NCBI GenBank assembly: GCA_035556555.1
Contig: DATMES010000059.1
Span: forward strand, 12,054 to 76,053
Source: Frankiaceae bacterium
GTDB lineage: Bacteria; Actinomycetota; Actinomycetes; BP-191
Reading direction: 5' to 3'
DNA length: 64,000 nt
The first letter of the stretch is position 1. Each line of letters starts with the position of its first letter. A program made the translations under genes and the position numbers. The notes under the pieces were generated by a model. It saw only the letters and a program-made list of their open reading frames with translations, ran no database searches and was not told the origin of the DNA. Of this stretch, positions 10,810 through 57,489 are shown piece after piece.

Positions 10810-10832
10810 TCCGGGAAGTCAGGAGCGGAGCG

Positions 10833-14404: not shown

Positions 14405-14467
14405 TGGCGCCAGCGGACATCACGGCGTAGCGCACTCCTCGTACTGCGGGCCTCCGAGCCCGAAGGA

Positions 14468-23104: not shown

Positions 23105-23119
23105 GCGGGAACGCACCCA

Positions 23120-23158
23120 CCAGGGGCCGTCGGCACAACACCTCGCCGACGGCCCCTG
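23120..23158 (+). terminator. 13-bp stem hairpin (caggggccgtcggc...gccgacggcccctg) 3' of the glycine-rich protein gene
   Basis: Perfect inverted repeat seen directly. Confidence 0.55.
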
Positions 23159-23176
23159 GCGTGCGTACGCCCGACT

Positions 23177-23194
23177 TTGTGCAGGCGTTCACAA
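23177..23194 (+). promoter_or_regulatory. Candidate Rex operator TTGTGCAGGCGTTCACAA, ~100 nt upstream of rex
   Basis: Matches the actinobacterial Rex operator consensus TTGTGAA-N4-TTCACAA with one mismatch. Sits ahead of the rex-hem operon as in Streptomyces. Confidence 0.6.
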
Positions 23195-23297
23195 GGCGTA
23201 TTCTCAATGGCACAAGCGAGCGGCCCGGACTCGGAGTGTGGCCGGGACCAAGGCTCGCGCGAGGGAGATCCGTGCGTACGCGAGCCTGGGGCGGGGC

Positions 23298-28852: not shown

Positions 28853-28886
28853 GTACGCGGCGGCCTCACGCCGAATCTCCCAGGGC

Positions 28887-33693: not shown

Positions 33694-33735
33694 CCCCGTT
33701 TCGGCGGGGGTGGCGCGGGCTGGGAGGATGGGAGG

Positions 33736-35037
33736 GTGATGTACCCAGCCGACGCCCCCGCCTCCGAGGCACTGTTCGAGCGCGCCAAGCGCGTGACCCC
33801 CGGTGGGGTCAACTCGCCGGTCCGCGCGTTCGGCGCCGTCGGCGGCGCGCCGCGGTTCATGGTCTCCGGCGACGGCGCGTACCTCACCGACGCGGACGGG
33901 CGGACGTACGTCGACCTCGTCTGCTCGTGGGGCCCGATGATCCTCGGCCACCGGCACCCCGCGGTGCAGGAGGCGATCGCCGGCGCCGCCACGCAGGGCA
34001 CGAGCTTCGGCACGCCCACGCCCGGCGAGGTCGAGCTGGCCGAGCACATCACCGGGCGCGTGGACTTCGTCGAGCAGGTCAGGCTCGTCTCCTCCGGCAC
34101 CGAGGCGACGATGTCCGCGGTACGCCTCGCGCGCGGCTTCACCGGTCGCTCCAAGGTCGTGAAGTTCGCCGGCTGCTACCACGGCCACGTCGACGCGCTG
34201 CTCGCCAGCGCGGGCAGCGGCGTGGTGACGTTCGGGCTGCCGGACACGCCGGGCGTCACCGGCGCCAGCGCCGCCGACACGATCGTGCTGCCGTACAACG
34301 ACGTCGCCGCGGTCGAGGCGGCGTTCGAGGTGCACGGCAACGACATCGCCTGCGTCATCACCGAGGCCGCCGCCGCCAACATGGGCGTCGTCGCGCCGCT
34401 GCCCGGCTTCAACGCCGCCCTCCGCGACCTGACCACGCGGTACGGAGCGCTGCTGATCATCGACGAGGTCCTCACCGGCTTCCGCGTCAGCCCGACCGGC
34501 TGGTACGGCCTGGAGGGCGTACGGCCCGACCTCGCGACGTTCGGCAAGGTGATGGGCGGGGGGCTGCCGGCGGCGGCGTTCGGCGGGCGGGCCGACGTCA
34601 TGGGGCACCTCGCGCCCGCGGGCCCGGTCTACCAGGCGGGCACGCTCTCCGGTAACCCCGTCGCTGTCGCCGCCGGCCTGACGACCCTGCGGCACTGCAC
34701 CGACGACGTCTACGCGCACGTCGGCAAGACGGCGGAGACCGTGGCGGCCCTGGTGACCCAGGCCCTCACCGAGGCCGGCGTCGCACACCGGCTCAACACC
34801 GCGGGCAGCCTGTTCTCGGTCTTCTTCACGGAGCAGGCCGTCGTGGACTACGCCACCGCGAAGACCACGGACACGAAGCGGTACGGCGCGTTCTTCCACG
34901 AGTGCCTGCGCCGCGGCGTCTACCTGCCGCCGAGCGCGTACGAGGCGTGGTTCCTCTCCGCGGCGCACGACGACGCGGCCGTCGAGCGCATCGCCGAGGC
35001 CCTCCCGCATGCCGCTAGAGCCGCGGCGGCGCAGTGA
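33736..35037 (+). CDS. hemL: Glutamate-1-semialdehyde 2,1-aminomutase
   Basis: [21 protein letters not shown]-terminus. Class III aminotransferase motifs with the PLP Lys region ([18 protein letters not shown]). Confidence 0.9.
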
Positions 35038-35672
35038 CCGTCGTCACCCGGGTCCACCTGCTGCGGCACGGCGAGGTGCACAACCCAGGCAAGGTGCTGT
35101 ACGGCCGCCTGCCCGGCTTCCGGCTCTCGGACACCGGCGAGGCGATGGCGGTCATGGCCGCCGCGGCGCTGACCGGCCGTGACGTCACGCTGCTGCTCAC
35201 CTCGCCGCTCGAACGCGCCCAGCAGACCGCCGAGCCGCTGGCGAAGGTGCTCGACCTCACGCCGCGCGTCGACGACCGGCTGATCGAGAGCGGCAACAAG
35301 TTCGAGGGGCGCACCGTCGACCGCGGCTGGAAGTCGTTCACCGACCCGGCGGCGCTCACGCTGCTGCGCAACCCGTTCGAGCCGTCGTGGGGGGAGCCCT
35401 ACGCGGAGACGGCCCAGCGCATGCTCGAGGCCGTGACCGACGCGCGAGACGAGGCGTACGGGCACGAGGCCGTGGCGGTCAGCCACCAGCTCCCGATCTA
35501 CGTGCTGCGCCGCTTCGTCGAGGGGCGCCGCCTCGCGCACCGCCCCGACAAGCGGCAGTGCGGATTGGCGAGCTACACGACGCTGACCTGGCACGACCGC
35601 CGGCTCGCGTCGGTGACGTACACCGAGCCGGCCGGCGCGCTCTCCCGCAAGCCGGCTACGCCGGGGGCGTAG
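35034..35672 (+). CDS. Histidine phosphatase (phosphoglycerate-mutase-like) family protein
   Basis: [11 protein letters not shown] is the RHG catalytic motif. Conserved position after hemL as in mycobacteria and Streptomyces. Confidence 0.8.
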
Positions 35673-39551: not shown

Positions 39552-40379
39552 CTAGACGCCGACGGCGACGCGTTCCGGGGCGCCCTGCGGCTGCGGGATG
39601 CGGCGCAGCTCGTAGATCACGAGGCCGGCGAGGTGCACGAGGAAGAGCACGAGGAACAGCAGGATCGACCAGTACGTCGGCGTGGCCAGCGAGCCGGTGT
39701 TGAGGACCAGGGTCATCGTCTTCGGCTTGATCTTGGCCTTGAGCTCCTTGGCCGGCTCGTTGTCGGTCGCGGTGACGTCGGCGGGCCCGAACGTCACGCG
39801 GGCGTACTTGTAGCGGCCCTCGTCACGCGCGAGGCGGGTCTCGGTGATCTTGATGACGTTGGGCACGGTGATGTCGGCGGCGCCGACGCCGAGCTCGACG
39901 GCGTACTCCTCGGAGATCCGCTCGGCCGCGGCGGACTCGGCGGAGGCCTTGTCGCCCGCGGCCGACGTCACGGAGTCGTCGATCGCGATGAACGCGTCGC
40001 GGCCGGGCCCCTCCTCGAACTCCTTGAACTCACTCTGCAGCGCCGCGGGTCCGTTGGGGGAGGCGACCTCCCAGCGTTGCTCGGCGCCCTGCGGGCCGTA
40101 GTACTTCGGCGTCGACCGCGGGATGCCGAGCGGCTCGAAGCCGGGCACGCCGAACAGCCAGATCAGCGACAGCACCAGCCACGAGCCCCAGAACGCGACG
40201 CCCGAGACGAGGTACGCCTGCTTCGGCCCGAACGACGACTGCAGCAGCATCCACACGCCGCCGCAGAGGATGAGGAACATCAGGACGGTGCCGAAGACCG
40301 CGCGCGGGCCCTTGGTCTTGACCTCCTCCTGCGCCAGCAGCACCACCGGGTTGGCGGTCAGGGCGTACACGTTGGGCAC
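39552..40379 (-). CDS. Membrane protein of unknown function, last gene of the b6f-type operon (2 N-terminal TM, a soluble Ala/Glu-rich domain, 1 C-terminal TM)
   Basis: Hydrophobic segments (VFGTVLMFLILCGGVWMLL; WSILLFLVLFLVHLAGLVI). Start placed at an in-frame GTG 17 nt after the cytochrome c stop. Confidence 0.5.
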   Translation of the reverse strand: MPNVYALTANPVVLLAQEEVKTKGPRAVFGTVLMFLILCGGVWMLLQSSFGPKQAYLVSGVAFWGSWLVLSLIWLFGVPGFEPLGIPRSTPKYYGPQGAEQRWEVASPNGPAALQSEFKEFEEGPGRDAFIAIDDSVTSAAGDKASAESAAAERISEEYAVELGVGAADITVPNVIKITETRLARDEGRYKYARVTFGPADVTATDNEPAKELKAKIKPKTMTLVLNTGSLATPTYWSILLFLVLFLVHLAGLVIYELRRIPQPQGAPERVAVGV

Positions 40380-40395
40380 GACGAGCCTTCCTAGG

Positions 40396-41085
40396 TCAGT
40401 GAGCGGCGGCGAACGCGATGAGGCGCGAGAACGGTCCCGGCTGGTTGCCCAGAGCAAGCTCCGCGGCGTCCTCCTCCGGCAGCCCCTCCTGGATCGAGAT
40501 GAGGAAGTTGACGACGTCCTCGATCTGCTGGTCGTTCATCGGGCCGCCGTAGCCCAGGCCCCACGTCGGCATCGGGGTGCCGGGCCGGCCCTGCGCGATG
40601 GTGTCGTAGACGAAGCGGTACGCGTCGCGGACCGACTTGTTCTGGTCGATCATCTGGCGCTTGAAGATCTCGTGGAGGTTGGGCACCGGGTAGTCGGTGG
40701 CCTCGGCGTCGGCGTTGGCCTTGTACTGCGGCACGACACCGCCGCCGGCGAACGTCCCGTGACAGCGCGCGCACCCGGCCTGGAAGCCGTGCGCCCCGGG
40801 CTCGGCCTGCGCGTAGATGAACGCCCCGCGCTCGATCGACTCCTCGCGCTGCTCGAGCGCGGCGTCGTTGGAGCGCTGGTTCTCGAAGAACACGAAGTAG
40901 ATCGGCAGGTACAGCGCCAGGAACACGACGAGCAGCGTGCCCCAGCCCTGCCAGCGCTCGAGGATGTTGGTCTCGAGCTCGTCGTCGGAGGGCGCGGGGC
41001 GGAAGCCGATGGGGATGGAGAGCGGCTTGCGGCGCCGGACGACGGCGCCCTTGGCACGCTCGCCGCGCGGGGTGATGTCGCTCAT
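40396..41085 (-). CDS. Membrane-anchored monoheme c-type cytochrome (single CxxCH: CARCH)
   Basis: N-terminal TM (WGTLLVVFLALYLPIYFVFF), one CARCH heme-binding motif and a candidate Met axial ligand region (GTPMPTW). Confidence 0.7.
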   Translation of the reverse strand: MSDITPRGERAKGAVVRRRKPLSIPIGFRPAPSDDELETNILERWQGWGTLLVVFLALYLPIYFVFFENQRSNDAALEQREESIERGAFIYAQAEPGAHGFQAGCARCHGTFAGGGVVPQYKANADAEATDYPVPNLHEIFKRQMIDQNKSVRDAYRFVYDTIAQGRPGTPMPTWGLGYGGPMNDQQIEDVVNFLISIQEGLPEEDAAELALGNQPGPFSRLIAFAAAH

Positions 41086-41122
41086 CGTGCTTCCGCTCTC
41101 TCCTTCTATCGGTCAGGCCTGG

Positions 41123-41683
41123 TCAGCCCGTGCAGTGAGCGCCTTCGGGGTTCTGGTTGATCGTGTCCGTGCCGCGCGGGGGGCCGTCCTTGGGGTCGGC
41201 CGTGTCGACGATGACGTTGCCGCCGTCGATGACGATCGGGAAGTGCTGCAGGCCGGTCGGCGCGGGGCCGAACTCGTACTCGCCGGCCTTGTTGTAGCGG
41301 GAGCCGTGGCACGGGCACTCGAACCAGCCGCTGGTCTCGCACTGCGGGACCTTGCAGCCGAGGTGCGCGCACTTCTGGTAGACGGCGAGGAAGCCCTCGG
41401 CGGCGACGCCCTTGTAGAACGCCTCCTGGCCGGCGACCGGCTTGTACGCGACGAGGTACGTGCGCGCCTCGGCGTAGTACTTCCAGCCGTGCGGGATGGC
41501 GGCGAGCTCGCCCTTCAGATCGTCGACCTTGCCGAGGTTGATCTTCGCGCCGAAGCCGCCGCGCAGGCTCGGCCAGAGCATGCCGAGGCTCGCGGCGGCG
41601 AAGCCGCCCAGCCCGACCGCGGAACCGCCGAGCATGCTCAGCCGGAAGAAGTCCCGGCGGGACATGCCCTTCTTCTTGGCCAT
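41123..41683 (-). CDS. Rieske [2Fe-2S] iron-sulfur protein with a Tat signal
   Basis: Twin-arginine motif SRRDFFRL. Rieske boxes CAHLGC and CPCHGS. Confidence 0.85.
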   Translation of the reverse strand: MAKKKGMSRRDFFRLSMLGGSAVGLGGFAAASLGMLWPSLRGGFGAKINLGKVDDLKGELAAIPHGWKYYAEARTYLVAYKPVAGQEAFYKGVAAEGFLAVYQKCAHLGCKVPQCETSGWFECPCHGSRYNKAGEYEFGPAPTGLQHFPIVIDGGNVIVDTADPKDGPPRGTDTINQNPEGAHCTG

Positions 41684-41695
41684 CGTTGCGCCGCC

Positions 41696-42577
41696 TTAGA
41701 ACTCGAAGTAGAGGCCCTTTTGCCACGGGAACACGAAGTTGTATCCGGGTCCGCGGAACAGGGAGCCGATGGTCGACAGGATGGCCGAGAACATCATGAA
41801 CCAGGTGAACAGCATGATCGCGAACTTGCGGTTGGCGGGCCGCATCGACGGGTTCTTGTCGAGGTACGGGAACGCCATGAGGATGCCGAGCCCGATGCCG
41901 GGGATGAGCACGCCCGCGATCATCGGGTGGTAGTACCTCAGCAGCTCCTGGAGGCCCAGGAAGTACCAGGGCGCCTTGGAGGGGTTCGGCGTGAGGTTGA
42001 CATTGGCGAGGTCGAGCAGCGGGGCGTCGACCAGCGTCGAGAACACCGTGAGGAACGCCAGGCAGGCCAGCACCGCGACGAACTCCTCGAGGAGCAGGTG
42101 CGGCCAGACGTTGACCTTGTCGTCCTGGGTGCGCTCGACGCGCTGGATGCCCTCCGGCGGGACCATCGCCAGCAGGCGGTGGGTCATCTCGCCGGACAGC
42201 CCGCGGCCGCCGCCGCCCTTGCCCGCCGTGGCCGCGGCGACGCGGGCCTGGCGCTCGGCGGGGGACAGCGGGGTGGCGCGGGTGAGCGTGCTCGTACCGC
42301 CGCCGGCGGCGGCAGGAGCGGCTGCGGCAGCGGCGGCCGGAGCCGGGGCGGCAGCGGCGGGTGCGTCGGCCGTCGCGGCTGCGGCGGCGGGGGGCGCGGC
42401 GGCGGCGGGCGCTGACGCGGCGGCGGCGGCCTGCTGGGCCGGCGACGGGATGCCGGCGGCCTTGCGGGCCTTCTTCACCGCGGCGGACTTCGCCTTGGCG
42501 CGCGCCATCCGCTCCGAGTCGCCCGCGGCGATGGCGGCCGCGTAGACCTCGGGATCCGGCGTGATCTCTTCGCTCAT
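41696..42577 (-). CDS. Cytochrome b6f subunit IV (PetD)-like protein with an ~130-aa Ala/Pro-rich N-terminal extension
   Basis: C-terminal half matches subunit IV / the C-terminal cytochrome b (PWYFLGLQELLRYYHPMIAGVLIPGIGLGILMAFPYL, three TM helices). The N-terminus is low-complexity Ala-rich. Confidence 0.8.
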   Translation of the reverse strand: MSEEITPDPEVYAAAIAAGDSERMARAKAKSAAVKKARKAAGIPSPAQQAAAAASAPAAAAPPAAAAATADAPAAAAPAPAAAAAAAPAAAGGGTSTLTRATPLSPAERQARVAAATAGKGGGGRGLSGEMTHRLLAMVPPEGIQRVERTQDDKVNVWPHLLLEEFVAVLACLAFLTVFSTLVDAPLLDLANVNLTPNPSKAPWYFLGLQELLRYYHPMIAGVLIPGIGLGILMAFPYLDKNPSMRPANRKFAIMLFTWFMMFSAILSTIGSLFRGPGYNFVFPWQKGLYFEF

Positions 42578-42587
42578 GTCGACTCCC

Positions 42588-43385
42588 TTACAGAGGCCCG
42601 GAGATCCCGCCGTCCTTGCGGATCCGCCAGAAGTGGACGGCCATGAAGATGACCGCCACGAACGGCAGCGCGAGGACGTGGAGGACGTACCAGCGGAGAA
42701 GCGTCGGAGGCCCGATCTCGACCCCGCCGAGGAGGACGAACCGCACCTCCTTGCCGAACACGGGGGTGTAGCCCATCATCTGCGTGCCGACGGCGACGGC
42801 CCAGATGGCCAGCTGGTCCCACGGCAGCAGGTAGCCGGTGAACGACAGCAGCAGCGTCAGCAGCAGCAGGATGACGCCGACGACCCAGTTGAACTCTCTC
42901 GGGGCCTTGTACGCGCCGTGGTAGAAGACGCGCGCCATGTGCAGGAACACCGTGAACACCATGGCGTGCGCGGACCACCGGTGCATGTTGCGTACGAGCT
43001 GGCCGAACGCGATGCCGGACGAGAGGTTCTGGATGTCCTTGTACGCGAGCTCCTGGCCGAAGCCGGCGGAGGGCCGGTAGAAGAACATCAGGTAGATGCC
43101 GGTGACCGTCAGCAGGATGAAGAGGAAGAACGACAGCCCGCCGAGGCAGTACGTGTAGGTGAGCTTGAGGCCGTGACGCTTCAGCTTCACCGGGTGCAGG
43201 TGGTAGAGGACGTTGTTCATCGTCGCGAGCGCGCGGTCGCGCGACGTGTCCCGGTAGCCGGGGCGGTAGATCGAGCCCGGGCGGAAGATCGACTTCCAGA
43301 CCGCGCCGTCGCGCGGGTCCTTGGGCTTGACCATCTCCTCGAGGTGCTGCCGCACCTCGGCCTTGCGCCCGTCCTTGTCGGCCAC
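42588..43385 (-). CDS. Cytochrome b6-type (split cytochrome b, N-terminal four-helix) subunit
   Basis: Unmistakable b6 signatures: CLGG...HRWSAH, FLHMARVFY, GYLLPWDQLAIWAV, RWYVLHVLALP, HFWRIRKDGGISGPL, with four His heme ligands. Start at a GTG preceded by AAGGAAGG (ORF 42588..43643). Confidence 0.85.
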   Translation of the reverse strand: MADKDGRKAEVRQHLEEMVKPKDPRDGAVWKSIFRPGSIYRPGYRDTSRDRALATMNNVLYHLHPVKLKRHGLKLTYTYCLGGLSFFLFILLTVTGIYLMFFYRPSAGFGQELAYKDIQNLSSGIAFGQLVRNMHRWSAHAMVFTVFLHMARVFYHGAYKAPREFNWVVGVILLLLTLLLSFTGYLLPWDQLAIWAVAVGTQMMGYTPVFGKEVRFVLLGGVEIGPPTLLRWYVLHVLALPFVAVIFMAVHFWRIRKDGGISGPL

Positions 43386-43402
43386 GTCGGGTCGTACCTT
43401 CC

Positions 43403-43756
43403 TTATCGCTTCGGGCGAGCGGCGGCTTCGCCGATCTTCGAGTAGAACAGGGCGCCCGGCGGGCAGCGGTCGACGCAGATGCCGCAGCGGGTGCACTCGT
43501 TGTCGTCGATGATGAAGATCGCGCCCGCCGTCTCCGACAGGGTCTTCAGCTCGCTGTTCTCGGCGCCGGCGACGATCTCCGGGGACATCATGTAGATGCA
43601 CTCCCACGGGCAGACGTCCTCGCACGCGCGGCAGAGGATGCACAGCTCCGGGGACAGCGCGATGTGGCGCTTCGGCTTGACCCGCTCCTGCAGCCAGTTG
43701 GGGTCGACGGTGCCGAGGACGTAGTCGTCGTAGATCTCGACGCGGTTGTCGGTCAT
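43403..43756 (-). CDS. Dicluster 2x[4Fe-4S] ferredoxin
   Basis: Two CxxCxxCxxxCP motifs (CILCRACEDVCP and CTRCGICVDRCP). Confidence 0.8.
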   Translation of the reverse strand: MTDNRVEIYDDYVLGTVDPNWLQERVKPKRHIALSPELCILCRACEDVCPWECIYMMSPEIVAGAENSELKTLSETAGAIFIIDDNECTRCGICVDRCPPGALFYSKIGEAAARPKR

Positions 43757-43765
43757 GTCGACGCC

Positions 43766-44080
43766 CTAACGGTAGCCACCGGCGTCGCGCTTCATCTCGT
43801 CAGCGTCGGCGTTGACCGGGTTCATGCGCTGGTAGAGAGCGAAGGCGACGAACGTGACCGGGGTGATGGCGCCGTAGTAACCGACGACGATGAGGTCGCG
43901 CAGGCGCGGGCCGAGACCGAGGATGCCGAACGTCTTGGGCGCGAGCACCCAGCTCCAGTCGTTGGACCAGGTCAGGAGCGCGCTGGGGACGGACGCGAAG
44001 AAGATCATGAACAGCACGGTGAAGATGAACGACCCGATGCTCGCGCGGAGCCATGCCGACCGCTGGAGCAGGTTGCCCAT
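43766..44080 (-). CDS. Small membrane protein (about 104 aa, 2-3 TM), first gene of the b6f-type operon
   Basis: MGNLLQRSAWLRASIGSFIFTVLFMIFFASVPSALL... Start at the internal Met of ORF 43766..44272. Confidence 0.4.
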   Translation of the reverse strand: MGNLLQRSAWLRASIGSFIFTVLFMIFFASVPSALLTWSNDWSWVLAPKTFGILGLGPRLRDLIVVGYYGAITPVTFVAFALYQRMNPVNADADEMKRDAGGYR

Positions 44081-44279
44081 GAGCGCCTTCCTCGTGTGGA
44101 TGAGCACGCCGGAGCGCGAGCCCCGGCCGCCAGCGATACTACGTCCCTGGGCAGAGCGCCCGCGAATCCATCCGCCGCCCGCGCGCCGCGCGTCGCGGCC
44201 CGCCCCGTGATCGCCCCCGACAGCCAGGAAGGCCGGCTCCCCGTGCCCCGCCCCGCCACCCCCGCGGCCCACCCCCGGC

Positions 44280-44392
44280 GGTTACTGGTGAGTAGCGGCG
44301 CGCCGTATGGGGGAACTGGTGAGCCACGACGTCGCTACTCACCAGTAACCGCGGGTCGGCGGCGGCTCGCGGGCCGGGTACTGCCGGGCGCG
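44280..44392 (+). repeat. Structured repeat, copy A: 18-bp perfect inverted arms (GGTTACTGGTGAGTAGCG / CGCTACTCACCAGTAACC) around a 35-bp spacer, plus a shared tail. Lies in the divergent promoter region between the b6f-type operon and resA, and overlaps the resA 5' end
   Basis: Seen directly. A second copy at ~48198-48292 has identical arms, the first 20 nt of the spacer inverted, and a shared tail (GCGGG...CTGCCGGGCGCG). The ACTGGTGAG motif occurs three times per copy. Confidence 0.7.
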
Positions 44393-44944
44393 GTGGCGGC
44401 GGTCGTGCTCGTGGCCGGGTGCACCGGCGGGGGGTCGGAGACCACGTCCGGTACGCAGCGTTTCGTCGCAGGGGACGGGGTCGTGCACTACGTCCCCGCG
44501 GCCAACCGCGAGCCCGGTCCCGACATCGCCGGCGAGACGCTCGACGGGGAACGGCTCGACGTCGGCACGCTGCGCGCGGGCGGCGTCGCGGTCGTCAACA
44601 TCTGGGGCTCCTGGTGCGCCCCCTGCAAGAAGGAGCAGGGCGCGCTGGAACGCGTCGCCCGCGCGACCCGTTCCCGAGGGGTGCGGTTCGTCGGCATCAA
44701 CATCCGGGACTCCTCGAAGACCGCGGCGAGGATGCACGTGACGAAGTACGACGTGACGTACCCCTCGCTCTACGACCCCTCGGCCCGGCTGCTGCCACGC
44801 TTCGAGATCGCGCCCAAGACGATCCCCAGCACGTACGTCATCGACCCCGGCGGGCGCATCGCGGCGTACGTCTACGGCCCCATCGAGGAGCAGCCGCTGA
44901 CCGACCTCGTGGACCGGGTGCTCGCGGAGGCGGGCCCGGCGTGA
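44393..44944 (+). CDS. resA: Thioredoxin-like thiol-disulfide oxidoreductase ResA/TlpA family (lipoprotein-type signal, WCxxC)
   Basis: VLVAGC lipobox-like signal. The WCAPCKKE thioredoxin motif. Conserved position before ccdA. The start is uncertain: no canonical start lies upstream of the n-region RRRLAGR because the repeat arm occupies it. Shown from the first in-frame GTG. Confidence 0.7.
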   Translation: MAAVVLVAGCTGGGSETTSGTQRFVAGDGVVHYVPAANREPGPDIAGETLDGERLDVGTLRAGGVAVVNIWGSWCAPCKKEQGALERVARATRSRGVRFVGINIRDSSKTAARMHVTKYDVTYPSLYDPSARLLPRFEIAPKTIPSTYVIDPGGRIAAYVYGPIEEQPLTDLVDRVLAEAGPA

Positions 44945-45708
44945 ACGGCATCCAGGACACCGTCCTCAACGGCTCGCTGCTCGCGGCGCTGCCGCTGGCG
45001 CTGCTGGCGGGGCTGGTGTCGTTCCTCTCGCCGTGCGTGCTGCCGCTGGTCCCCGGCTACCTCTCGTACATCACCGGCCTCACCGGCGCCGACCTCGCCG
45101 AGGAGGAGGCCGGCGGCCGCGCGAAGCGCCGGGCGATGATCGGCGCGCTGCTGTTCGTGGGCGGGTTCTCGGTCGTGTTCGTCAGCGCGGGGGCGGCGTT
45201 CGGGGCGGCGGGTTCGTTCTTCGCGGACTACGCCACCGTCATCACGCGCGTGCTGGGCGTCGTGACGATCGTGCTCGGGCTGGCGTTCATGGGGGCGATG
45301 CAGCGGATCCCGTTCTTCTCGCGGGAGTTCAAGGTCCACAAGCTGCCGGCGACGGGGCTGGCGGGGGCGCCGTTCCTCGGGGTGCTGTTCGGGATCGGCT
45401 GGACGCCGTGCGCCGGACCGACGCTGACCGCGGTCAACTCGCTCGCGTACTCCACCGGCACGGCGGGCCGCGGGGCGGTGCTGTCGCTGGCGTACTGCCT
45501 CGGTCTCGGGCTGCCGTTCATCCTCGCGGGGCTGGCGTTCGAGAAGTCGATGTCGATGTTCGCGGTCGTCAAGCGGCACTACGCGCTGGTGACGCGGATC
45601 GGCGGCGGGCTGCTCGTCGTCATCGGCCTGCTGCTCGTGACCGGCTTCTGGGACCGGATCGTGGCGTACATGCAGGTCTGGGTCGGCGGCTTCGAGACGG
45701 TCGTATGA
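44941..45708 (+). CDS. ccdA: Cytochrome c-type biogenesis thiol:disulfide interchange membrane protein CcdA
   Basis: DsbD-beta core with the two conserved Cys (FLSPCVLPLVPGY and GWTPCAGP). Confidence 0.85.
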   Translation: MNGIQDTVLNGSLLAALPLALLAGLVSFLSPCVLPLVPGYLSYITGLTGADLAEEEAGGRAKRRAMIGALLFVGGFSVVFVSAGAAFGAAGSFFADYATVITRVLGVVTIVLGLAFMGAMQRIPFFSREFKVHKLPATGLAGAPFLGVLFGIGWTPCAGPTLTAVNSLAYSTGTAGRGAVLSLAYCLGLGLPFILAGLAFEKSMSMFAVVKRHYALVTRIGGGLLVVIGLLLVTGFWDRIVAYMQVWVGGFETVV

Positions 45709-47228
45709 CGGCCACGCTCTCGACGTCGCCGGAGGAGCGCGAGGTCTCGCCTCGCCGCGTCCGGCCGCTCCGCCGCGCCTGGGGCCAGCTGACGTCGATG
45801 CGGACGGCGCTGCTGCTGCTGTTCCTGCTGGCGCTGGCCGCGGTGCCCGGCTCGCTGCTGCCGCAGCGCAACCTCGACCTGCTCGCGGTGCAGACGTACT
45901 ACGCCGAGCACCCCTCGCTCGCGCCGACGCTGGACCGGCTGTACCTGTTCGACGTGTACGCCTCGCCGTGGTTCATGGCGATCTACCTCGCGCTGATGAT
46001 CTCGCTGGTCGGCTGCCTCGCGCCGCGGATCCGGCTGCACGCGCGGGCACTCGTACGCCGTCCGCCCGCGCCGCCCGCGCACCTCTCGCGTCTCCCCGCC
46101 TACCGGTCCTGGGTGACGGACGCGGCGCCGGCCGAGGTGGAGGCGTCGGCCGCGAAGGCGCTGCGGCGCTGGCGGGTGCGCTCGTACGACGGCCGCGGCG
46201 TCGCCGCCGAGCGCGGCTACCTCCGCGAGACCGGCAACCTCCTCTTCCACGTGGCCCTGCTCACGCTGCTCGTCGGCATCGGGATCGGCGCGGCGTACGG
46301 CTACCAGGGCGCGGTGCTGGTGGTGGAGGGCGACACGTTCGTCAACACGCCCGCCGCCTACGACGAGCTCCGTCCAGGCCGGCTGAACTCGGTGGAGGAC
46401 CTGCCGCCGTTCGAGGTCACACTCGACGACTTCCGGGCGACCTATCTGGACAACGGGGCGCCGACGTCGTTCGCGGCGGATGTCCGGTGGCGCCCCTCGC
46501 CCGACGACGCGGTGCGGCCGCGGACGGTGAAGGTGAACGAGCCCCTCACCGTCGACGGCGCGCGCGTCTACCTGCTCGACCACGGCTACGCGCTGCACTT
46601 CACCGCCACGCTGCCCGACGGCACCGTGATCTACGACCAGTGGCAGCCGTTCCTCCCCGAGCGCGGCGACCCGAACCTCGCCTCCGACGGGGCGTTGAAG
46701 ATCACCGACCTGCCCGGCGGGCTGCCGGACATCGGGCTGCGGGGTCTGTTCACGCCGACGCTGGGGGTGCGGCAGGGGTTCGCGTACTCGCAGTTCCCCG
46801 CGGCGCACCTGCCGGCGTTCGCGTACGAGGTCTGGGCCGGCGACCTCGGCCTGTCGAGCGGCGTACCCCAGTCGGTCTACGACCTCGACACGTCGAAGAT
46901 GACGAAGACGAGCAACGGCATCGTCTTCGAGGGCCAGACCATCGAACGGCTGCCCGGCGGGGCCACGCTGACGTTCGACGGGGTGAAGGACTTCGCGGTC
47001 TTCCAGGTGACGGTGGACCCGGGCAAGTACCTCGTGCTCGGCTCGGCCGTCGCGGCGCTGACCGGTCTCGTGCTGTCGCTGCGGGTACGGCGGCGGCGGG
47101 TCTGGGTGCGGGCGACGCCGACCGAGGCCGGTACCCTCGTGGAGGTCGGCGGGCTGGCCCGGCAGGACCCCGAGGCGTTCGCGCCCGAGGTCGCCAGGCT
47201 CGCCGAACGAATGGGAGGACCACCCTGA
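45705..47228 (+). CDS. resB: Cytochrome c biogenesis protein ResB/CcsB
   Basis: ResB architecture: N-terminal TMs (MRTALLLLFLLALAAVPGSLLPQ), a large soluble domain and a C-terminal TM. Sits between ccdA and ccsA. Confidence 0.85.
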   Translation: MTATLSTSPEEREVSPRRVRPLRRAWGQLTSMRTALLLLFLLALAAVPGSLLPQRNLDLLAVQTYYAEHPSLAPTLDRLYLFDVYASPWFMAIYLALMISLVGCLAPRIRLHARALVRRPPAPPAHLSRLPAYRSWVTDAAPAEVEASAAKALRRWRVRSYDGRGVAAERGYLRETGNLLFHVALLTLLVGIGIGAAYGYQGAVLVVEGDTFVNTPAAYDELRPGRLNSVEDLPPFEVTLDDFRATYLDNGAPTSFAADVRWRPSPDDAVRPRTVKVNEPLTVDGARVYLLDHGYALHFTATLPDGTVIYDQWQPFLPERGDPNLASDGALKITDLPGGLPDIGLRGLFTPTLGVRQGFAYSQFPAAHLPAFAYEVWAGDLGLSSGVPQSVYDLDTSKMTKTSNGIVFEGQTIERLPGGATLTFDGVKDFAVFQVTVDPGKYLVLGSAVAALTGLVLSLRVRRRRVWVRATPTEAGTLVEVGGLARQDPEAFAPEVARLAERMGGPP

Positions 47229-48169
47229 TGCCGATCGACGCCGGCCTGGCGAGCGCGAGCGACAACCTGCTCTTCGCGGCCGTCGTGGCGTACGTCGTCG
47301 CGATGCTCGGCTACTTCGTCGAGTTCGCGTCCGGTCGTCGCGTGCCCTTGCCGATCGCGGGTGGCGCCACGGACACCGCTCTCCCGCCGTCGTACGTGGC
47401 GTCGGTCGAGTCCGCGTCGCGGCGCGGGCGGCTCGGGCTGTGGTGCGGCCGTGGCGCTGTGGCGCTGACGGTGGTGGGCTGGGGGCTGCACGCTGGTGCC
47501 GCCGTGCTGCGCGGCCTCGCGACCGACCGGGTGCCGTGGGGGAACATGTACGAGTTCTCCTCGATGGTCTGCCTGATCGGCGTGACGTCGTTCCTCGTGC
47601 TGCTGGTACGGCAGCCGGTGCGCTACCTCGGCGGCTTCGTGATGCTGCCGGTGGTGCTGACGCTGGGGCTCGCGTCGTCGGTGCTGTACGCGCCCGCGGC
47701 TCCTTTGGTACCCGCGCTCAACTCGTACTGGATCAAGATCCACGTGGTCGCGGCGATGACGGCGTTCGGCGTGTTCATGGTGGGGATCGTGGCGACGCTG
47801 CTGTATCTGGTGGCTGTGCGGCTGGAGGCCCGGGGGCGCGGTGCGTCGCGGCTGCCGGCCGCCGCCTCGCTGGACCGGGTCGCCTACAGGACGATCGCCT
47901 TTGCCTTCCCGATCTGGACCTTTGCCGTGATGGCCGGCGCGGTGTGGGCCGAGGCGTCGTGGGGGCGGTACTGGGGCTGGGACCCCAAGGAGACGTGGTC
48001 GTTCATCACGTGGGTGCTCTACGCGGGCTACCTGCACGCGCGCGCGACGGCCGGGTGGCGCGGGTCCCGCGCGGCCTGGGTGGCGGTCGCCGGCTTCGTG
48101 GCGCTGATGTTCACGTACTACGGCGTCAACATCTGGATCCCCGGCCTCCACTCGTACTCGGGCGTGTAG
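47228..48169 (+). CDS. ccsA: Cytochrome c-type biogenesis protein CcsA/ResC (heme exporter/lyase subunit)
   Basis: WWD-domain region (WGRYWGWDPKETWSFITW) with the conserved His residues. Confidence 0.85.
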   Translation: MPIDAGLASASDNLLFAAVVAYVVAMLGYFVEFASGRRVPLPIAGGATDTALPPSYVASVESASRRGRLGLWCGRGAVALTVVGWGLHAGAAVLRGLATDRVPWGNMYEFSSMVCLIGVTSFLVLLVRQPVRYLGGFVMLPVVLTLGLASSVLYAPAAPLVPALNSYWIKIHVVAAMTAFGVFMVGIVATLLYLVAVRLEARGRGASRLPAAASLDRVAYRTIAFAFPIWTFAVMAGAVWAEASWGRYWGWDPKETWSFITWVLYAGYLHARATAGWRGSRAAWVAVAGFVALMFTYYGVNIWIPGLHSYSGV

Positions 48170-48197: not shown

Positions 48198-48292
48198 GGT
48201 TACTGGTGAGTAGCGACGTCGCGGCTCACCAGTTCGTGCTCGCTGTTTGTCGCTACTCACCAGTAACCGCGGGCCCACTGCCGGGCGCGCCG
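48198..48292 (+). repeat. Structured repeat, copy B: same 18-bp inverted arms as copy A, 35-bp spacer with an inverted core, shared tail. Lies between ccsA and the CcoN-like gene
   Basis: Seen directly. The arms are identical to copy A. Spacer ACGTCGCGGCTCACCAGTTC is the reverse complement of the copy A spacer segment GAACTGGTGAGCCACGACGT (1 mismatch). Confidence 0.7.
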
Positions 48293-48360: not shown

Positions 48361-49749
48361 GTGACTGTCACGACGTCGGCGTCGACGGCGTCGGAGCGGG
48401 AGGCCGCCGCCTGGGAGGCGCCGTACGGTCCCGCGCTGACGTACCTCGTCGCCGGCACGTTCTGCCTCGCCATCGGCGGCCTGCTCATGCTGCTCGCCGC
48501 GGCGCAGACGGTGTCGCCGGACCTGTTCACGATCGGCGGGTCGACGTCGTTCGGCCGCATCCGCCCGGCGGCCCACCTGCTGCTCGTCTACGGCGGCCTC
48601 GGCATGGTGGGCAACGGCGTCGCCCTCGACGTCGCGCGCCGCGCCGCCAAGGCCCCCGCGAGCCTCGACAAGCTGGTCCGCGCCGCGGGCGCCGTGACGA
48701 CGATCGGCGTCGTCGGGAGCGTCGCCGCGGTCCTGCTCGGGCACTCGACGGGGCGCGTCGGCTTCGAGATGCCGCGCCCGTTCGCGGCGCTGCTCGCGCT
48801 CGGCCAGCTTCTCGTGCTGCTGGCGGTGCTGCGTACGCTCTCTCGCCGCACGACGAGCGACCTGCACCCGTCGCTGTGGTTCGTGGTGGCGGCGCTGTTC
48901 TGCGCGCCGTTCGTCATCCTCGCGGGCTCGCTGCCCGCCGTCCGCGGCATCAACGACGAGATCGTGCTGTCGTTCGGCATCTCCGGGCTGAAGCTGCTCT
49001 GGCTGATCCCGCTCGGCATCGGCGCCGCGCTCTACGTCGTCCCCAACGCCGGCCGCGCCGCGCTGCACAGCCGCCAGCTGGCGCTGGTGGCGTTCTGGGG
49101 CTGGTTCCTCTTCGCGCCGTTCGCCGGGCCGATGCGCCTCGTGTCGGGCCCCGCGCAGGAGTGGCTCGAGACGGTCGGCGTCGCCGCGTCGATCGCGCTC
49201 GGCGCGCCGTTGCTCGCGGTCGTCGTGCTGCTCCTCGCGACGTACTCCCGGCGTACGTCGCTCGCCCACGGTGCCGACCTGCGCCTCGCCCTCGCGGGCG
49301 TGGGGCTGCTGGCGTTCTGGGGGCTCACGTCGATGCTGACGGCGGGCCGTACGGCCGGCGCCCTCCTGCACGGCTCGGTCGCGGCGGACGGGCTCGCCGA
49401 GCTGGCGCTGTTCGGGGTCGCGGGGGCGCTGCTGCTGGCGGGGGTGTTCCACGCGCTGCCGAGCGTCACGGGCGACCGCATCGCCAACGTCCGCGTGGCC
49501 GGCTCCACCGTCTGGCTGCTCGCGGCCGGCGCCGCTCTCGTCGCGCTGTCGCTGCTCGTCGGCGGCTACGTCCAGGGGATGCTCCTGGAGCAGGGCGTCC
49601 GCACCGGCGGCGAGTCGTTCGCCGAGGTCGCCGACGCGATCGAGCCGATGCTCTGGCTCCGCGTCGTAGGCGAGGCGCTCGTCGCGCTGGCCTGGGTGAT
49701 GGCGTTCCAGCAGGTGTTCTCGACGTCGACCGCGAGCGACGGGGAGTAG
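48361..49749 (+). CDS. 12-TM heme-copper-oxidase-like (CcoN/NorB-like) membrane subunit lacking the canonical adjacent His-His CuB pair
   Basis: 462 aa with 12 predicted TM helices. 7 His spread across helices but no HH dipeptide. GTG start preceded by GGAGG. Translationally coupled to a bona fide CcoO-like gene. Confidence 0.55.
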   Translation: MTVTTSASTASEREAAAWEAPYGPALTYLVAGTFCLAIGGLLMLLAAAQTVSPDLFTIGGSTSFGRIRPAAHLLLVYGGLGMVGNGVALDVARRAAKAPASLDKLVRAAGAVTTIGVVGSVAAVLLGHSTGRVGFEMPRPFAALLALGQLLVLLAVLRTLSRRTTSDLHPSLWFVVAALFCAPFVILAGSLPAVRGINDEIVLSFGISGLKLLWLIPLGIGAALYVVPNAGRAALHSRQLALVAFWGWFLFAPFAGPMRLVSGPAQEWLETVGVAASIALGAPLLAVVVLLLATYSRRTSLAHGADLRLALAGVGLLAFWGLTSMLTAGRTAGALLHGSVAADGLAELALFGVAGALLLAGVFHALPSVTGDRIANVRVAGSTVWLLAAGAALVALSLLVGGYVQGMLLEQGVRTGGESFAEVADAIEPMLWLRVVGEALVALAWVMAFQQVFSTSTASDGE

Positions 49750-49751
49750 CG

Positions 49752-50264
49752 ATGCCGAGCCTGTTCCCCGTGATCGCCGGGCCAGCGCTGCTCGTCGCCG
49801 CCGGCTACGGCGTCACCGTCGTCGCGCCGGCCACCGAGCGGACCAACACCGTCCGCACCGAGGAGACCCGCGAGTACACCGTCGGCGCCGGCAAGGGCCG
49901 CGAGATCTACGCCGCCAACGGCTGCGTCTACTGCCACTCGCTGCAGCGCCGCGACACGTACGCCGACGCCGCGCTCGGGCCCGCGCCGTCCTCGAACAAG
50001 GAGGCGCTGAACGACCGACCGGCGATGCTCGGCGACGTCCGCTACGGCCCCGACCTCTCCTGCGCCGGCGACCATGTGCCCGGTGCCGCCGAGGACGCCG
50101 ACACCGACGCGCGGATCGACGCGATGGTCGCGTACCTGGAGCACCCGGAGCGCGCGCACGAGGGGTCGACGATGCCGTCGTACGCCTTCCTGAAGCACGA
50201 CGACCTGCGCCGGCTGGCGTCGTACCTCGTCGAGCACACCTGCGCCGCGGAGGCCGCCGAATGA
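49752..50264 (+). CDS. Membrane-anchored monoheme cytochrome c subunit of cbb3/NOR type (CcoO/FixO-like)
   Basis: N-terminal TM, then GREIYAANGCVYCHS (CxxCH) and the FixO-like motifs GPDLSCAGD and MPSYAFL. Strong family resemblance to cbb3 subunit II. Confidence 0.7.
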   Translation: MPSLFPVIAGPALLVAAGYGVTVVAPATERTNTVRTEETREYTVGAGKGREIYAANGCVYCHSLQRRDTYADAALGPAPSSNKEALNDRPAMLGDVRYGPDLSCAGDHVPGAAEDADTDARIDAMVAYLEHPERAHEGSTMPSYAFLKHDDLRRLASYLVEHTCAAEAAE

Positions 50265-50491
50265 CCGAGCGCATGCCCGACCGCCCGCTGTTCATCGACC
50301 CGATCGCCGTCGGGTCCGGCGACGAGGTCGACGACGCGCCCGCGCCGCGCTGGTTCCTGCTCGTGGCGCTGGTGATCCTGGCCGCGGCGGGCTACTACCT
50401 CGCGACGTTCCTGTCCGGCCCGAGCGAGTCGTCGGAGCACCGCTTCCAGCCGGGCCGCGAGGTCTACGAGCAGGTGTCCCGCTCGGAGTGA
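50261..50491 (+). CDS. Small single-TM protein (76 aa), possible CcoQ-like accessory subunit
   Basis: Single hydrophobic helix (WFLLVALVILAAAGYYLATFL). Overlaps both neighbours, which suggests translational coupling. Confidence 0.4.
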   Translation: MTERMPDRPLFIDPIAVGSGDEVDDAPAPRWFLLVALVILAAAGYYLATFLSGPSESSEHRFQPGREVYEQVSRSE

Positions 50492-50919
50492 CCCGCGTCG
50501 AGAAGGCGTACGCGTACGTCGTCTCCGCGGGCAGGCTGCTCGTCTTCACGCACCGCGACGTGTCCCTGCTGGAGACCGGCGTGCAGGTGCCCGGCGGCAC
50601 CGTACGACCGGGGGAGGCGCCGGAGGCCGCGGTCCTGCGCGAGGTCCGCGAGGAGACCGGCTACGAGACGTTCGAGGTACGCCGCGCGCTCGGCACCGCC
50701 GACTACCGCGTCGGCGACGTCACGCACCACCGGCACTTCTTCCAGCTCGCGCCGACCGCGCCGCTGCCGGAGACGTGGGAGGCGGCCGAACGCCACGACG
50801 GCCTGCGCGCGCCGACGGCGTTCGTCCTCTCGTGGCTCCCGCTGGCGCACGGGCACGTGCTGGCGGCCGGGCTGGGGGCGCTGCTGCACGGCGTTCAGGA
50901 CACCGGTGTCCAGGGGTAG
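50488..50919 (+). CDS. NUDIX hydrolase
   Basis: Nudix box GGTVRPGEAPEAAVLREVREETG. Confidence 0.8.
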   Translation: MTRVEKAYAYVVSAGRLLVFTHRDVSLLETGVQVPGGTVRPGEAPEAAVLREVREETGYETFEVRRALGTADYRVGDVTHHRHFFQLAPTAPLPETWEAAERHDGLRAPTAFVLSWLPLAHGHVLAAGLGALLHGVQDTGVQG

Positions 50920-55705: not shown

Positions 55706-55824
55706 CCCGTCGGGGTGGAGTGACTAGAGCGGAAATGGCCCCATCTCGCCATGGCTCAAATCGGGCAGATCGCGAAGGCTTGCCCGAAGTCCTCCCATAC
55801 GGCCATCACGACAGGGGGCGCGTC

Positions 55825-57489
55825 ATGCGCTTGCACCGTCCGGTACTCGCCGGCCTCGTTCTTGGTACGGCAGTCCTTCCCGTGACCGCGGCGAACGCCG
55901 CCACCGGTGTGACCGCGGCAGGTAGCGCCGTGTCCACCGCCACGCTCGCCACCTTCTCGGTGGGCGCGTTGGCCGACCTCGTCGAGGCGCAGAGCGTCTC
56001 GATCGGGTCGCTCGCCGCGACCGCTCAGACGGTGACGAACGCCGCTCCGTCGGTGACGTTCGTCCCGATCACGCTGAACGGCGTCAAGACCGGCGCCGTC
56101 ACCGTGACCGCGGCGAACAGCCCGCAGACCGTGGGCGCCGTCAACACCAACGACCTCGGAGTCCTCTCCGCGACCAGCCCGGGCGCGACGCTCATGGCCG
56201 ACGACTCGTCCTCGGCGCTCGAGACGTCCCTCGGGTCGCTCAGCGTGCTCGGCCTTCCCGTGACGCTGGACGGCGGCCTCGACGTCGGCTCGGCGACGAG
56301 CGCGACGCAGTCGCAGGCCGGCAAGGCGCTCAGCATCTCCAACGTCGAGCTGCCGAACCTCGCCGACCTCCTCGCGGCCCTCGGCCTCGACCTCACCAAG
56401 CTTCCCGCCGACACGCTCAACGGCCTCATCGAGGACCTCAACGTCGCGCTCGACGGCGCGCAGCAGACCGCGATGGACAACGCCAACACGGCGATCGGCC
56501 TCGCGCAGCAGGCCGTCGACGACGCGGACGGCGACGTCGCCGACGCGACGACCGCGCTCTCCGCGGCCGCGGCCACGCTGACGTCCGAGCTGTCCAGCGC
56601 GAACTACCCGATCGGCACCTCGCCGATGACGGCCGAGGAGTGGGCGGCGCTCGACGCGACCGTGCAGGCCACCATCCTGGCGCTGAACGTCGGCGACACC
56701 GGCCTGGCCGACGCGATCACGGCGTACGACGCCGCCGTCGCCGCGCTCGCGCTCGCCGAGGACGCCATCGCGCCGCTCACCGAGGCGCTCGCCAACGCCA
56801 TCGCCGCGCTCGGCGGCATCGTGGACGGCATCCTCCAGGGCCTGCCGCTGCTCGAGGTCGGCGCCGCCGAGATCTCGACCAAGGCGCTCGTCGGCTCCGC
56901 CAAGACCGCGAACGTCACCGGCACCATCAGCGGCGTCAAGGTCCTCGGTACGGACATCCTCGAGACCGTCACGGGCGACAGCGAGCTCGACGTGGCAGGC
57001 CTCGTGGGCGATGTCGCCGACGACGTCAACGCCGCGCTCGGCACCGTCTCCGCCGCGCTCTCCGACGTCCTGTCCAGCGTGACCGGCGCCACCGGCCTCG
57101 TCGTTCCGGCTCCGGAGATCGCGCTCATGGAGAAGACGACGGCAACGGGTACGGACGGCGCGTTCGGCACCGCCGACGCGACCGTGACGGCGCTGTCGGT
57201 CAGCCTCGGCTCGGTGACCGTTCCCGCGATCTACGCCCTCGACGACGCCGCCGCCCTGCCGGGCCTCGGCGCCATCACCGGCGGCTTCCAGACGGCGCCG
57301 CTGTCCATGAAGGTCGGCTCGCTCGTCGAGTCGGCGCGGTTCCGCCCCGGTGCCGCGGCACCGAACGCGCCGACCCCCGGCAACACCGGCTCGCTGCCCT
57401 CGACCGGTGGCCCTGAGGGCCTCGCGATCGTCGCGGTGATCGGCACGGCGCTCGCCGTCGGCATCCGCCGGATGCGTACGCAGCAGTAA
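55825..57489 (+). CDS. Secreted cell-wall-anchored surface protein (LPSTG sortase motif), paralogous in architecture to the 2070-3509 protein
   Basis: Signal peptide (MRLHRPVLAGLVLGTAVLPVTAANAATG). Ala/Thr/Leu/Asp-rich body. C-terminal LPSTGG, a hydrophobic stretch and RRMRTQQ. Confidence 0.65.
   Translation: MRLHRPVLAGLVLGTAVLPVTAANAATGVTAAGSAVSTATLATFSVGALADLVEAQSVSIGSLAATAQTVTNAAPSVTFVPITLNGVKTGAVTVTAANSPQTVGAVNTNDLGVLSATSPGATLMADDSSSALETSLGSLSVLGLPVTLDGGLDVGSATSATQSQAGKALSISNVELPNLADLLAALGLDLTKLPADTLNGLIEDLNVALDGAQQTAMDNANTAIGLAQQAVDDADGDVADATTALSAAAATLTSELSSANYPIGTSPMTAEEWAALDATVQATILALNVGDTGLADAITAYDAAVAALALAEDAIAPLTEALANAIAALGGIVDGILQGLPLLEVGAAEISTKALVGSAKTANVTGTISGVKVLGTDILETVTGDSELDVAGLVGDVADDVNAALGTVSAALSDVLSSVTGATGLVVPAPEIALMEKTTATGTDGAFGTADATVTALSVSLGSVTVPAIYALDDAAALPGLGAITGGFQTAPLSMKVGSLVESARFRPGAAAPNAPTPGNTGSLPSTGGPEGLAIVAVIGTALAVGIRRMRTQQ

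Follow-up and report, generated by a model that had tools for sequence, protein, structure and literature searches.

The six histidines that hold the low-spin heme, the high-spin heme and CuB in subunit I of heme-copper oxidases (HCOs) are, to our knowledge, treated as universally conserved, and all families of oxidases and nitric oxide reductases (NORs) known to us keep their heme ligands. Here we describe a module of three genes at positions 48361–50491 of a 64,000-nucleotide stretch of DNA from a Frankiaceae bacterium (GenBank assembly GCA_035556555.1, contig DATMES010000059.1, positions 12,054 to 76,053; hereafter the window, GC content about 72%), whose CcoN-like subunit I lacks all six of these histidines in every alignment that we made. 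Full-text literature searches, whose coverage leaves out many subscription papers, turned up no account of an HCO subunit I without ligands; databases and automated annotation name such proteins 'cbb3-type cytochrome c oxidase subunit I'. The gNOR family, in which one active-site histidine is replaced by aspartate, was described as the first case of its kind and is the only one in which even one active-site histidine is replaced (Murali et al. 2024, PMC11214002). Genes for a 'cbb3 oxidase' beside Alternative Complex III (ACIII) have been noted in Verrucomicrobia and Opitutaceae (Refojo et al. 2010, as relayed by PMC8498564), and are treated there as encoding functional C-type oxidases (PMC8498564). 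Genome papers likewise infer high-affinity microaerobic respiration from cbb3 calls (PMC8357290, PMC5900883, PMC8498564).

The module resembles the cbb3 oxidase CcoN/CcoO/CcoP (3MK7, 5DJQ) in its 12-transmembrane-helix fold, in a CcoO-type partner with a membrane anchor, a CxxCH site and a Met ligand, in the gene order N–O–small subunit and in a glutamate equivalent to P. stutzeri E125; cbb3 oxidase is, moreover, known to be linked to complex III both genetically and physically (bc1–cbb3 supercomplexes 6XKW, 8SMR). Unlike cbb3, the module has neither the six histidines nor the cross-linked Tyr251, and of the diheme CcoP it has at most the anchor. With NorB/NorC of cNOR it shares the C-branch fold (TM-score about 0.80) and a monoheme c small subunit, whereas NORs retain both b hemes and the three-His/Glu FeB site. 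In qNOR, too, a cofactor has been lost from one domain, the NorC-like domain being without heme c, but the module shows the opposite pattern, with cofactors lost from the catalytic subunit and heme kept in the small one. Like gNOR, it is an HCO with a non-canonical site found by genome mining; unlike gNOR, it has all ligands replaced, the heme axial ones included.

A cbb3-like fold without metal ligands

The module comprises the following genes.

48361–49749 (+): CcoN-like HCO subunit-I homologue, 462 aa, 12 transmembrane helices (Pfam COX1, AlphaFold2, ligand columns)
49752–50264 (+): CcoO/FixO-like monoheme cytochrome c, 170 aa, N-terminal transmembrane anchor (Pfam FixO, PDB CcoO chains)
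50261–50491 (+): 76-aa single-transmembrane-helix protein, conserved, D..P.PRWF motif (tblastn orthologues, ATGA overlap)

A first-pass annotation, made from the sequence without database searches, had given the 462-aa protein the size and 12-helix topology of CcoN or NorB, and both family and fold bear this out. The protein matches Pfam COX1 (PF00115; E=9e-30, 104 bits, cutoff 34.8), and a phmmer search of the PDB returned cbb3 CcoN chains only, aligned over their full length, the four best at 2.5e-15 to 5e-10 (9g6b at 2.5e-15, 3mk7 at 5.6e-12, 8smr and 6xkw). NCBIfam searches with the CcoN-like and CcoO-like proteins returned the ccoN and ccoO models alone, all below threshold. An AlphaFold2 model built on a 52-sequence alignment has 12 long helices, a mean predicted local distance difference test score (pLDDT) of 89.1 and a predicted template modelling score (pTM) of 0.90, and Foldseek places it closest to 3mk7_A (TM-score 0.88, root-mean-square deviation 2.3 Å), the structure proposed beforehand for comparison. 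Below cbb3 CcoN come cNOR (TM-score about 0.80) and then A- and B-type oxidases, and the bc1–cbb3 supercomplexes 6xkw and 8smr are among the matches. The protein is thus a C-branch HCO subunit I, nearest to cbb3 and next to cNOR. NnrS or another 12-helix family, which the first-pass annotation had named as the finding that would overturn its view, did not emerge: COX1 is the sole Pfam family at E<=1, and NCBIfam matched this protein to ccoN only.

To read the ligand positions, we rebuilt P. stutzeri CcoN 28–454 from phmmer output, in which H60, H207, H257, H258, H345 and H347 fell at the expected indices, and took the columns from five alignments, three independent ones by phmmer and two by MAFFT with 9–13 canonical cbb3 sequences as anchors. 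Residues of the window protein at these positions (P. stutzeri numbering) are as follows.

H60: A
H207: S (I in the phmmer alignment)
Y251: A
H257: M
H258: R
H345: L
H347: E

The bis-His pair of the low-spin heme (H60, H347) is replaced by A and E, the proximal His of the high-spin heme (H345) by a residue that is L, V, A or I in nearly the whole family, and the CuB/FeB trio (H207, H257, H258) by S or I, M and R. The cross-link tyrosine is Ala in all members of the window family that cover its column, and the features of cNOR and qNOR, a three-His plus Glu FeB site and two b hemes, are likewise missing at these columns. The segments in which CuB histidines would be expected, IVLSFGISGLKLLW and FAPFAGPMRLVSGPAQEW, are His-free in the window protein, as are the FGISGL and AGPMRLVSGP segments. 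Canonical cbb3 sequences all score HHHHHH in the same alignments, and 157 scored sequences, every window-family member among them, have no histidine at any of the six columns. A miscount or misalignment is ruled out by the concordance of phmmer and several MAFFT alignments. The protein contains exactly seven histidines (72, 128, 169, 236, 303, 337 and 364) with no HH pair, just as had been counted at first pass, but because ligand loss is complete, the missing HH is only its visible part, and the early count under-reported a change that took all six ligands and the cross-link tyrosine. By these alignments, then, the ligands of heme b, heme b3 and CuB are all lost.

The remaining histidines do not look like substitutes. 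Those that are conserved (H169, H303, H337 and H364) map to loop ends or to non-ligand His positions of cbb3; H72, the neighbour of the H60 column, is F, H, T, Y, L or M among 51 aligned members of the family; and position 257 is M, L, V, A, T or G across 57 homologues. The glutamate equivalent to P. stutzeri E125 (E136 in the window protein) is kept in almost all ligand-less groups as well as in canonical cbb3. The suggestion that the pair belongs to a divergent NOR-like family with an altered active site does not survive, as no active site is left and several ligand columns vary freely. The protein belongs to the HCO superfamily by sequence and fold, but none of the features that define the cofactors is present, and so neither 'cbb3 oxidase' nor 'NOR' is a fitting label for it. 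Read from its residues, it is very probably not an O2 or NO reductase.

We considered whether the protein is nevertheless still an enzyme, with a new non-His site (Arg258/Glu347, His337) that holds another metal or cofactor and is supplied with electrons by the heme c of the CcoO-like protein. This donor is indeed kept, Arg at position 258 is present in 56 of 57 window-clade homologues, in the P0075 group and in P0340 (both described below), with Glu or Asp at 347 in all of these, and Glu serves as an FeB ligand in NORs (PMC11214002). However, the Arg/Glu pair is missing from the Acidimicrobiia and ACIII-linked groups, where the columns are variable or occupied by Q, P or A; none of the heme axial positions has a conserved His, Met, Cys, Lys or Tyr; Arg does not ligate metals; and His337 is replaced by Q, G or N in 6 of 51 members. 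We consider such a new active site quite improbable.

Partners and respiratory neighbourhood

The CcoO-like partner, in contrast to the CcoN-like subunit, has kept the hallmarks of a cytochrome. It matches Pfam FixO (E=7e-16, 58.8 bits, cutoff 29.6) and PDB CcoO chains (5e-9 to 1e-6), and the CVYCH, GPDLSCAGD and MPSYAFL motifs on which its identification as a CcoO/FixO-like monoheme subunit had first been based are invariant or nearly so in orthologues. Ten orthologues keep the N-terminal helix, the NGCVYCH heme site, RYGPDL and MPSY, the last being the Met ligand region when aligned to CcoO, so that a membrane-anchored monoheme c with CxxCH and a Met ligand, encoded beside a ccoN-like gene, is present in full. 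Two further invariant cysteines lie outside the CxxCH site in the CcoO-like proteins of this clade, one in DLSC-AGD and one in a C-terminal H/L-x-C; to judge by their invariance, they could form a lineage-specific disulfide.

The genes are tightly packed. The CcoN-like frame starts at GTG 48361, with GGAGG 6 nt before it, and ends at TAG 49747–49749, leaving a 2-nt gap to the ATG of the CcoO-like gene (49752), in line with the translational coupling that had been proposed for the pair; the TGA of the CcoO-like gene and the ATG of the 76-aa open reading frame (ORF) overlap as ATGA at 50261. The GC content at third codon positions (GC3) of the CcoN-like ORF is 0.96, as is usual for real genes of the window.

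Each of the 11 Frankiaceae-type loci with sequence at this position (two of these, L002 and L010, are one contig) has an orthologue of the 76-aa protein (tblastn, 41–90% identity) directly behind the CcoO-like gene, and an RPxFIDP...D..P.P.W motif precedes the single helix. The ORF had been called CcoQ-sized: the single-helix gene is real, but its identity as CcoQ is not borne out, as FixQ (PF05545) gave a weak match in 1 of 10 orthologues and FixP_N (PF14715), the anchor of CcoP, gave weak matches in 7 of 10, all of them below threshold (best FixP_N E 0.003; 12.8 bits for the window copy against a cutoff of 24.9). A PDB profile search with the family returned nothing. The FixP_N matches give a lead that the protein may be a remnant of the N-terminal anchor of CcoP. 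A diheme CcoP itself is not encoded here, as had been remarked at the outset: no c-type cytochrome gene follows the CcoO-like gene, and the 76-aa ORF has no CxxCH. Downstream, a NUDIX-domain ORF (50488–50919, 143 aa, GC3 0.96) overlaps the stop of the 76-aa ORF by GTGA; it does not occur at this position in the closest relative, the 92%-identical L001, which has an opposite-strand KTSC-domain gene there instead.

Upstream of the module lie cytochrome c maturation genes and, divergent from these, an operon of the complex III type.

44207–48169 (+): System II cytochrome c maturation genes resA-ccdA-resB-ccsA (start of resA uncertain; Pfam annotation of the syntenic L001; tblastn 80–94% identity)
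44941–45708 (+): ccdA
45705–47228 (+): resB
47228–48169 (+): ccsA
39552–44080 (−): ferredoxin–b6–subunit IV–Rieske–cytochrome c operon (Pfam families of syntenic loci)
43766–44080 (−): small membrane protein of this operon
43403–43756 (−): 2x[4Fe-4S] ferredoxin of this operon
42588–~43391 (−): cytochrome b6 of this operon
41696–42577 (−): subunit IV of this operon
41123–41683 (−): Rieske protein of this operon
40396–41085 (−): monoheme cytochrome c of this operon
39552–40457 (−): 301-aa membrane protein of this operon

The b6 operon adjoins the module in every actinobacterial locus with enough flanking sequence (L001–L019, L021–L024, L029 and L030). Nearest to the window locus are those of uncultured Frankiaceae and Mycobacteriales metagenome-assembled genomes (MAGs), and the window layout, in which resA-ccdA-resB-ccsA precedes the module and diverges from the b6 operon, recurs in all Frankiaceae-type loci, down to 54% identity of the CcoN-like protein. 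The b6 protein matches chloroplast and cyanobacterial b6 best among PDB chains (3e-44, versus about 1e-24 for actinobacterial QcrB), and the Cys for heme ci is conserved. The operon, of the b6f type, encodes b6 and subunit IV as separate proteins, to which it adds a 2x[4Fe-4S] ferredoxin, a monoheme cytochrome c and two uncharacterised membrane proteins. It differs from the canonical actinobacterial QcrCAB, and its conservation extends from Frankiaceae-type MAGs to Acidimicrobiia.

Gene fusions connect the parts of the module further. In MAGs of Acidimicrobiia, at about 30% identity, the CcoN-like and CcoO-like proteins are fused into one of ~650 aa in 9 of 11 loci (of the other two, one has an ORF that is truncated or frameshifted, followed closely by FixO, and one was not extracted), are equally ligand-less and are encoded by a gene directly divergent from the ferredoxin–b6–subunit IV–Rieske–cytochrome c operon. 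In a third lineage on which the context prediction was tested, P0075/P0337, the two parts are likewise fused; the ligand columns of this group read F, Q, I, R, N and E, and it also lies in a b6 and ResA-ResB-CcsA neighbourhood. In P0340, the ligand-less CcoN-like protein is fused C-terminally not to CcoO but to a type-1-copper cupredoxin (QHNF...FCDVHPNM, a His...Cys-x2-His-x2-Met motif), and its gene, in locus L030, is directly followed by a complete caa3 operon (COX2-COX1-COX3-COX4-CtaG), beyond which lies a FixO gene on its own.

9001–16858 of JGI metagenome contig Ga0598072_000108: L030 fusion locus, between the b6/Rieske plus ResA-ResB-CcsA operon and the caa3 operon

Ligand-less CcoN-like proteins also occur far beyond Actinomycetota, beside a different quinol:cytochrome c oxidoreductase. 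When 1.84 billion cluster representatives were searched with a profile, 1937 matched; among the best 150 of these, only 13 carry all six histidines and about 130 carry 0–2. A profile made from 30 such sequences recovered at least 1136 clusters, from Verrucomicrobiota or Acidobacteriota where the source names a taxon, most of them automatically named 'cytochrome c oxidase cbb3-type subunit 1'. Of the best 118 of these, 103 have no histidine at the six columns and the others one or two. All four contigs that we looked up hold a single operon, ActA-ActB-ActC-ActD-ActE-ActF-(~125 aa)-CcoN-like-FixO-(cytochrome c). Among 80 metagenome loci, ActF/ActC lies upstream in 37 of 37 with at least 2.5 kb of upstream sequence, FixO lies downstream in 51 of 51 with at least 1 kb of downstream sequence, and 68 of 68 near-full-length proteins have 0–2 histidines at the ligand columns (ACIII-type loci are L025–L028 and L031–L110). 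The ACIII–'cbb3' clusters of the literature share this layout of ActA–F, CcoN-like, FixO and cytochrome c, and the metagenomic members that we examined are without ligands. Average-linkage clustering did not resolve whether the ligands were lost once or several times.

The position of the module directly after the ccs genes, which had stood out at first pass, is confirmed by resA-ccdA-resB-ccsA upstream, but it proves to be a secondary link: when genomic context is compared across relatives, as had been advised, the association conserved between lineages is that with the Rieske/cytochrome b6 operon. The module could, in principle, assist in the maturation of cytochrome c or in the handling of heme, since it lies on the same strand and immediately 3′ of ccsA in the window, in Frankiaceae-type loci and in L019, L029 and L030. 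Against this, most Acidimicrobiia loci have no ccs genes between the fusion and the b6 operon (in L015, a ccsA-like gene is present at another place in the locus), and none of the ACIII-linked loci has ccs genes beside the CcoN-like gene; ccs adjacency was rejected as the key functional link on the same grounds. Moreover, a 191-nt gap with a strong hairpin separates ccsA from the CcoN-like gene in the window, the gap grows to 0.8–2.3 kb in L006 and L008, and the Ccs genes more simply serve the two nearby c-type cytochromes. A maturation role is very improbable. In the window lineage, it looks as if the ccs cluster had received the b6 operon and the CcoN-like module as insertions around it.

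Selection still acts on the module. A search of 5.8 billion proteins found 57 CcoN-like homologues at 49–92% identity, all intact, after which identity falls sharply to 30%. In the comparison with L001, the CcoN-like gene has a ratio of non-synonymous to synonymous substitution rates (dN/dS) of 0.28, the CcoO-like gene one of 0.42 and the 76-aa gene one of 0.29, compared with 0.05 for b6, 0.15 for resB and 0.21 for ccdA; these values come from the closest pair only, as 96% GC3 constrains synonymous sites and makes dN/dS at deeper divergence uninformative. Selection is purifying but relaxed, because dN/dS lies below 1 yet above that of the neighbours. At deeper divergence, CcoN-like identities track those of ResB, CcdA and Rieske. 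The loss of every catalytic ligand, together with dN/dS of 0.28–0.42 beside neighbours at 0.05–0.21, would suit a cbb3 relic without present function that is heading for loss. Such a relic, however, would hardly leave ORFs that are intact, at identities as low as 49%, in over 50 independent assemblies, related ligand-less forms in Actinomycetota, Verrucomicrobiota and Acidobacteriota, conserved synteny, coupling and fusions, a confident AlphaFold2 model and dN/dS below 1, and we regard it as extremely improbable. With intact homologues, a dN/dS of 0.28, neighbour-like divergence and kept coupling, the CcoN-like gene is not decaying.

Possible role beside complex-III-type enzymes

Given a cbb3-type fold without ligands, a retained heme c or type-1 copper domain, the gene fusions and the obligate neighbourhood of a quinol:cytochrome c oxidoreductase, we lean slightly towards a cbb3-derived module that has given up the reduction of O2 or NO and acts as a scaffold or relay beside the complex-III-type enzyme; for the relay or scaffold role taken by itself, we put the chances at roughly even. 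Because its ligands are lost, the 12-helix CcoN-like subunit would most likely be a cofactor-free scaffold, whereas the CcoO-like partner, by its motifs, would keep a c-type heme at the outer face of the membrane, probably attached by the Ccs system encoded upstream. Neighbourhood, fusions and domain swaps suggest that the module works with the adjacent ferredoxin/cytochrome b6/Rieske/cytochrome c complex. As a one-electron relay or docking platform in the membrane, it could take electrons from the monoheme cytochrome c of this complex and pass them on, to a genuine terminal oxidase or to some other acceptor; the caa3 operon in L030 suggests an A-type oxidase as the acceptor. The fusions in Acidimicrobiia and in the P0075 group point to physical association of the N and O parts. 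It is about an even call whether ligand-less CcoN-like proteins in general are platforms for a tethered carrier, be it a heme c of the CcoO type or a blue-copper domain, built into ferredoxin–b6–Rieske or ACIII operons.

A tethered one-electron carrier of this kind would resemble cytochrome cy, Bacillus c550/c551, the second heme of actinobacterial QcrC and auracyanin with ACIII, membrane-anchored carriers of organisms that mostly have no soluble cytochrome c. Unlike those carriers, which hang on a single helix or a lipid anchor, the module would use a whole oxidase-derived 12-helix subunit as its anchor. The proposed relay also recalls the docking of cbb3 on bc1 in the supercomplexes 6xkw and 8smr.

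The same subunit could instead provide a redox-independent ion or proton pathway, or act as a structural adaptor of a complex III–complex IV supercomplex, with the heme c playing a minor or regulatory part. Proton channels run through HCO subunit I, intramembrane charged residues are conserved, the solved supercomplexes 6xkw and 8smr show cbb3 docked on bc1, and the L030 gene sits between the b6 and caa3 operons. Yet a periplasmic carrier domain, with heme c or type-1 copper, is kept in every lineage examined, which argues for electron transfer as the selected function, and the ligand-less groups share no conserved polar pathway. We consider a pathway or adaptor of this kind unlikely.

Several points weigh against the scaffold or relay proposal. 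Keeping a 12-helix scaffold merely for one heme c would be puzzling, and intramembrane Arg258 with Glu/Asp347 could mark a new functional site instead of simply filling the pocket. That the subunit is cofactor-free, although most likely, is read from sequence, and gene neighbourhood speaks for association and not for the direction of electron flow. The window contains no terminal oxidase. The dN/dS of the module is 2–6 times that of the b6, Rieske and Ccs genes, and all ligand-less members come from MAGs or metagenomes.

If ligand-less CcoN-like proteins in general are such carrier platforms, many of the genome-inferred 'cbb3-type high-affinity oxidases' of these phyla are not oxidases, and the ACIII–'cbb3' clusters discussed since 2010 need re-reading; a simple check of the ligand columns would avert misannotation as cbb3 oxidase. 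The module would be a clear respiratory pseudoenzyme, its ligands lost but its fold, heme c partner and place in a respiratory operon kept. It suggests a wiring of complex-III-type enzymes to their acceptors of which we found no description in the literature, and it makes a hypothesis on the architecture of ACIII and b6-type supercomplexes directly testable.

The 71-nt inverted repeat and other features of the window

The gap before the module contains one of two copies of a perfect inverted repeat.

48198–48268 (no strand): 71-nt perfect inverted repeat with 20-nt arms, inside the 191-nt gap between ccsA and the CcoN-like gene; second copy at 44280–44350

Each copy has perfect 20-nt arms, GGTTACTGGTGAGTAGCGAC, around a 31-nt loop with a further, third half-site that is ACTGGTGAG-like, the two copies being oppositely oriented; the arm matches 4 times in the window against 0.01 expected. 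The second copy lies in the divergent promoter region of the b6 operon and resA, so that the repeat might have been a shared operator of the resA and CcoN-like operons, but this is not supported, as the element is missing beyond the closest relative. As L001 has a single copy and more distant relatives have none, it is more likely a REP-like (repetitive extragenic palindrome) or MITE-like (miniature inverted-repeat transposable element) sequence than a conserved operator.

Rfam searches gave no match within the module locus. Elsewhere in the window, a cyclic di-GMP-I riboswitch aptamer at 11635–11712 (−) matches Rfam RF01051 (50.3 bits, gathering threshold 35) upstream of an ORF ending at 10833. 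Two long ORFs, of 1659 aa at 15934–20913 (+) and 509 aa at 2070–3599 (−), have GC3 of 0.96–0.97 and no Pfam match at E<=1e-5. A typical actinobacterial heme-biosynthesis set (Rex, hemC, a cysG/hemD fusion, hemL and a histidine-phosphatase) occupies 22974–35672, before the ccs genes. Finally, the ORF at 55720–57489 (+) encodes a 589-aa Ala/Thr/Gly-rich, predicted secreted protein that ends in LPSTGG, a hydrophobic tail and RRMR, a putative sortase-type anchor signal.

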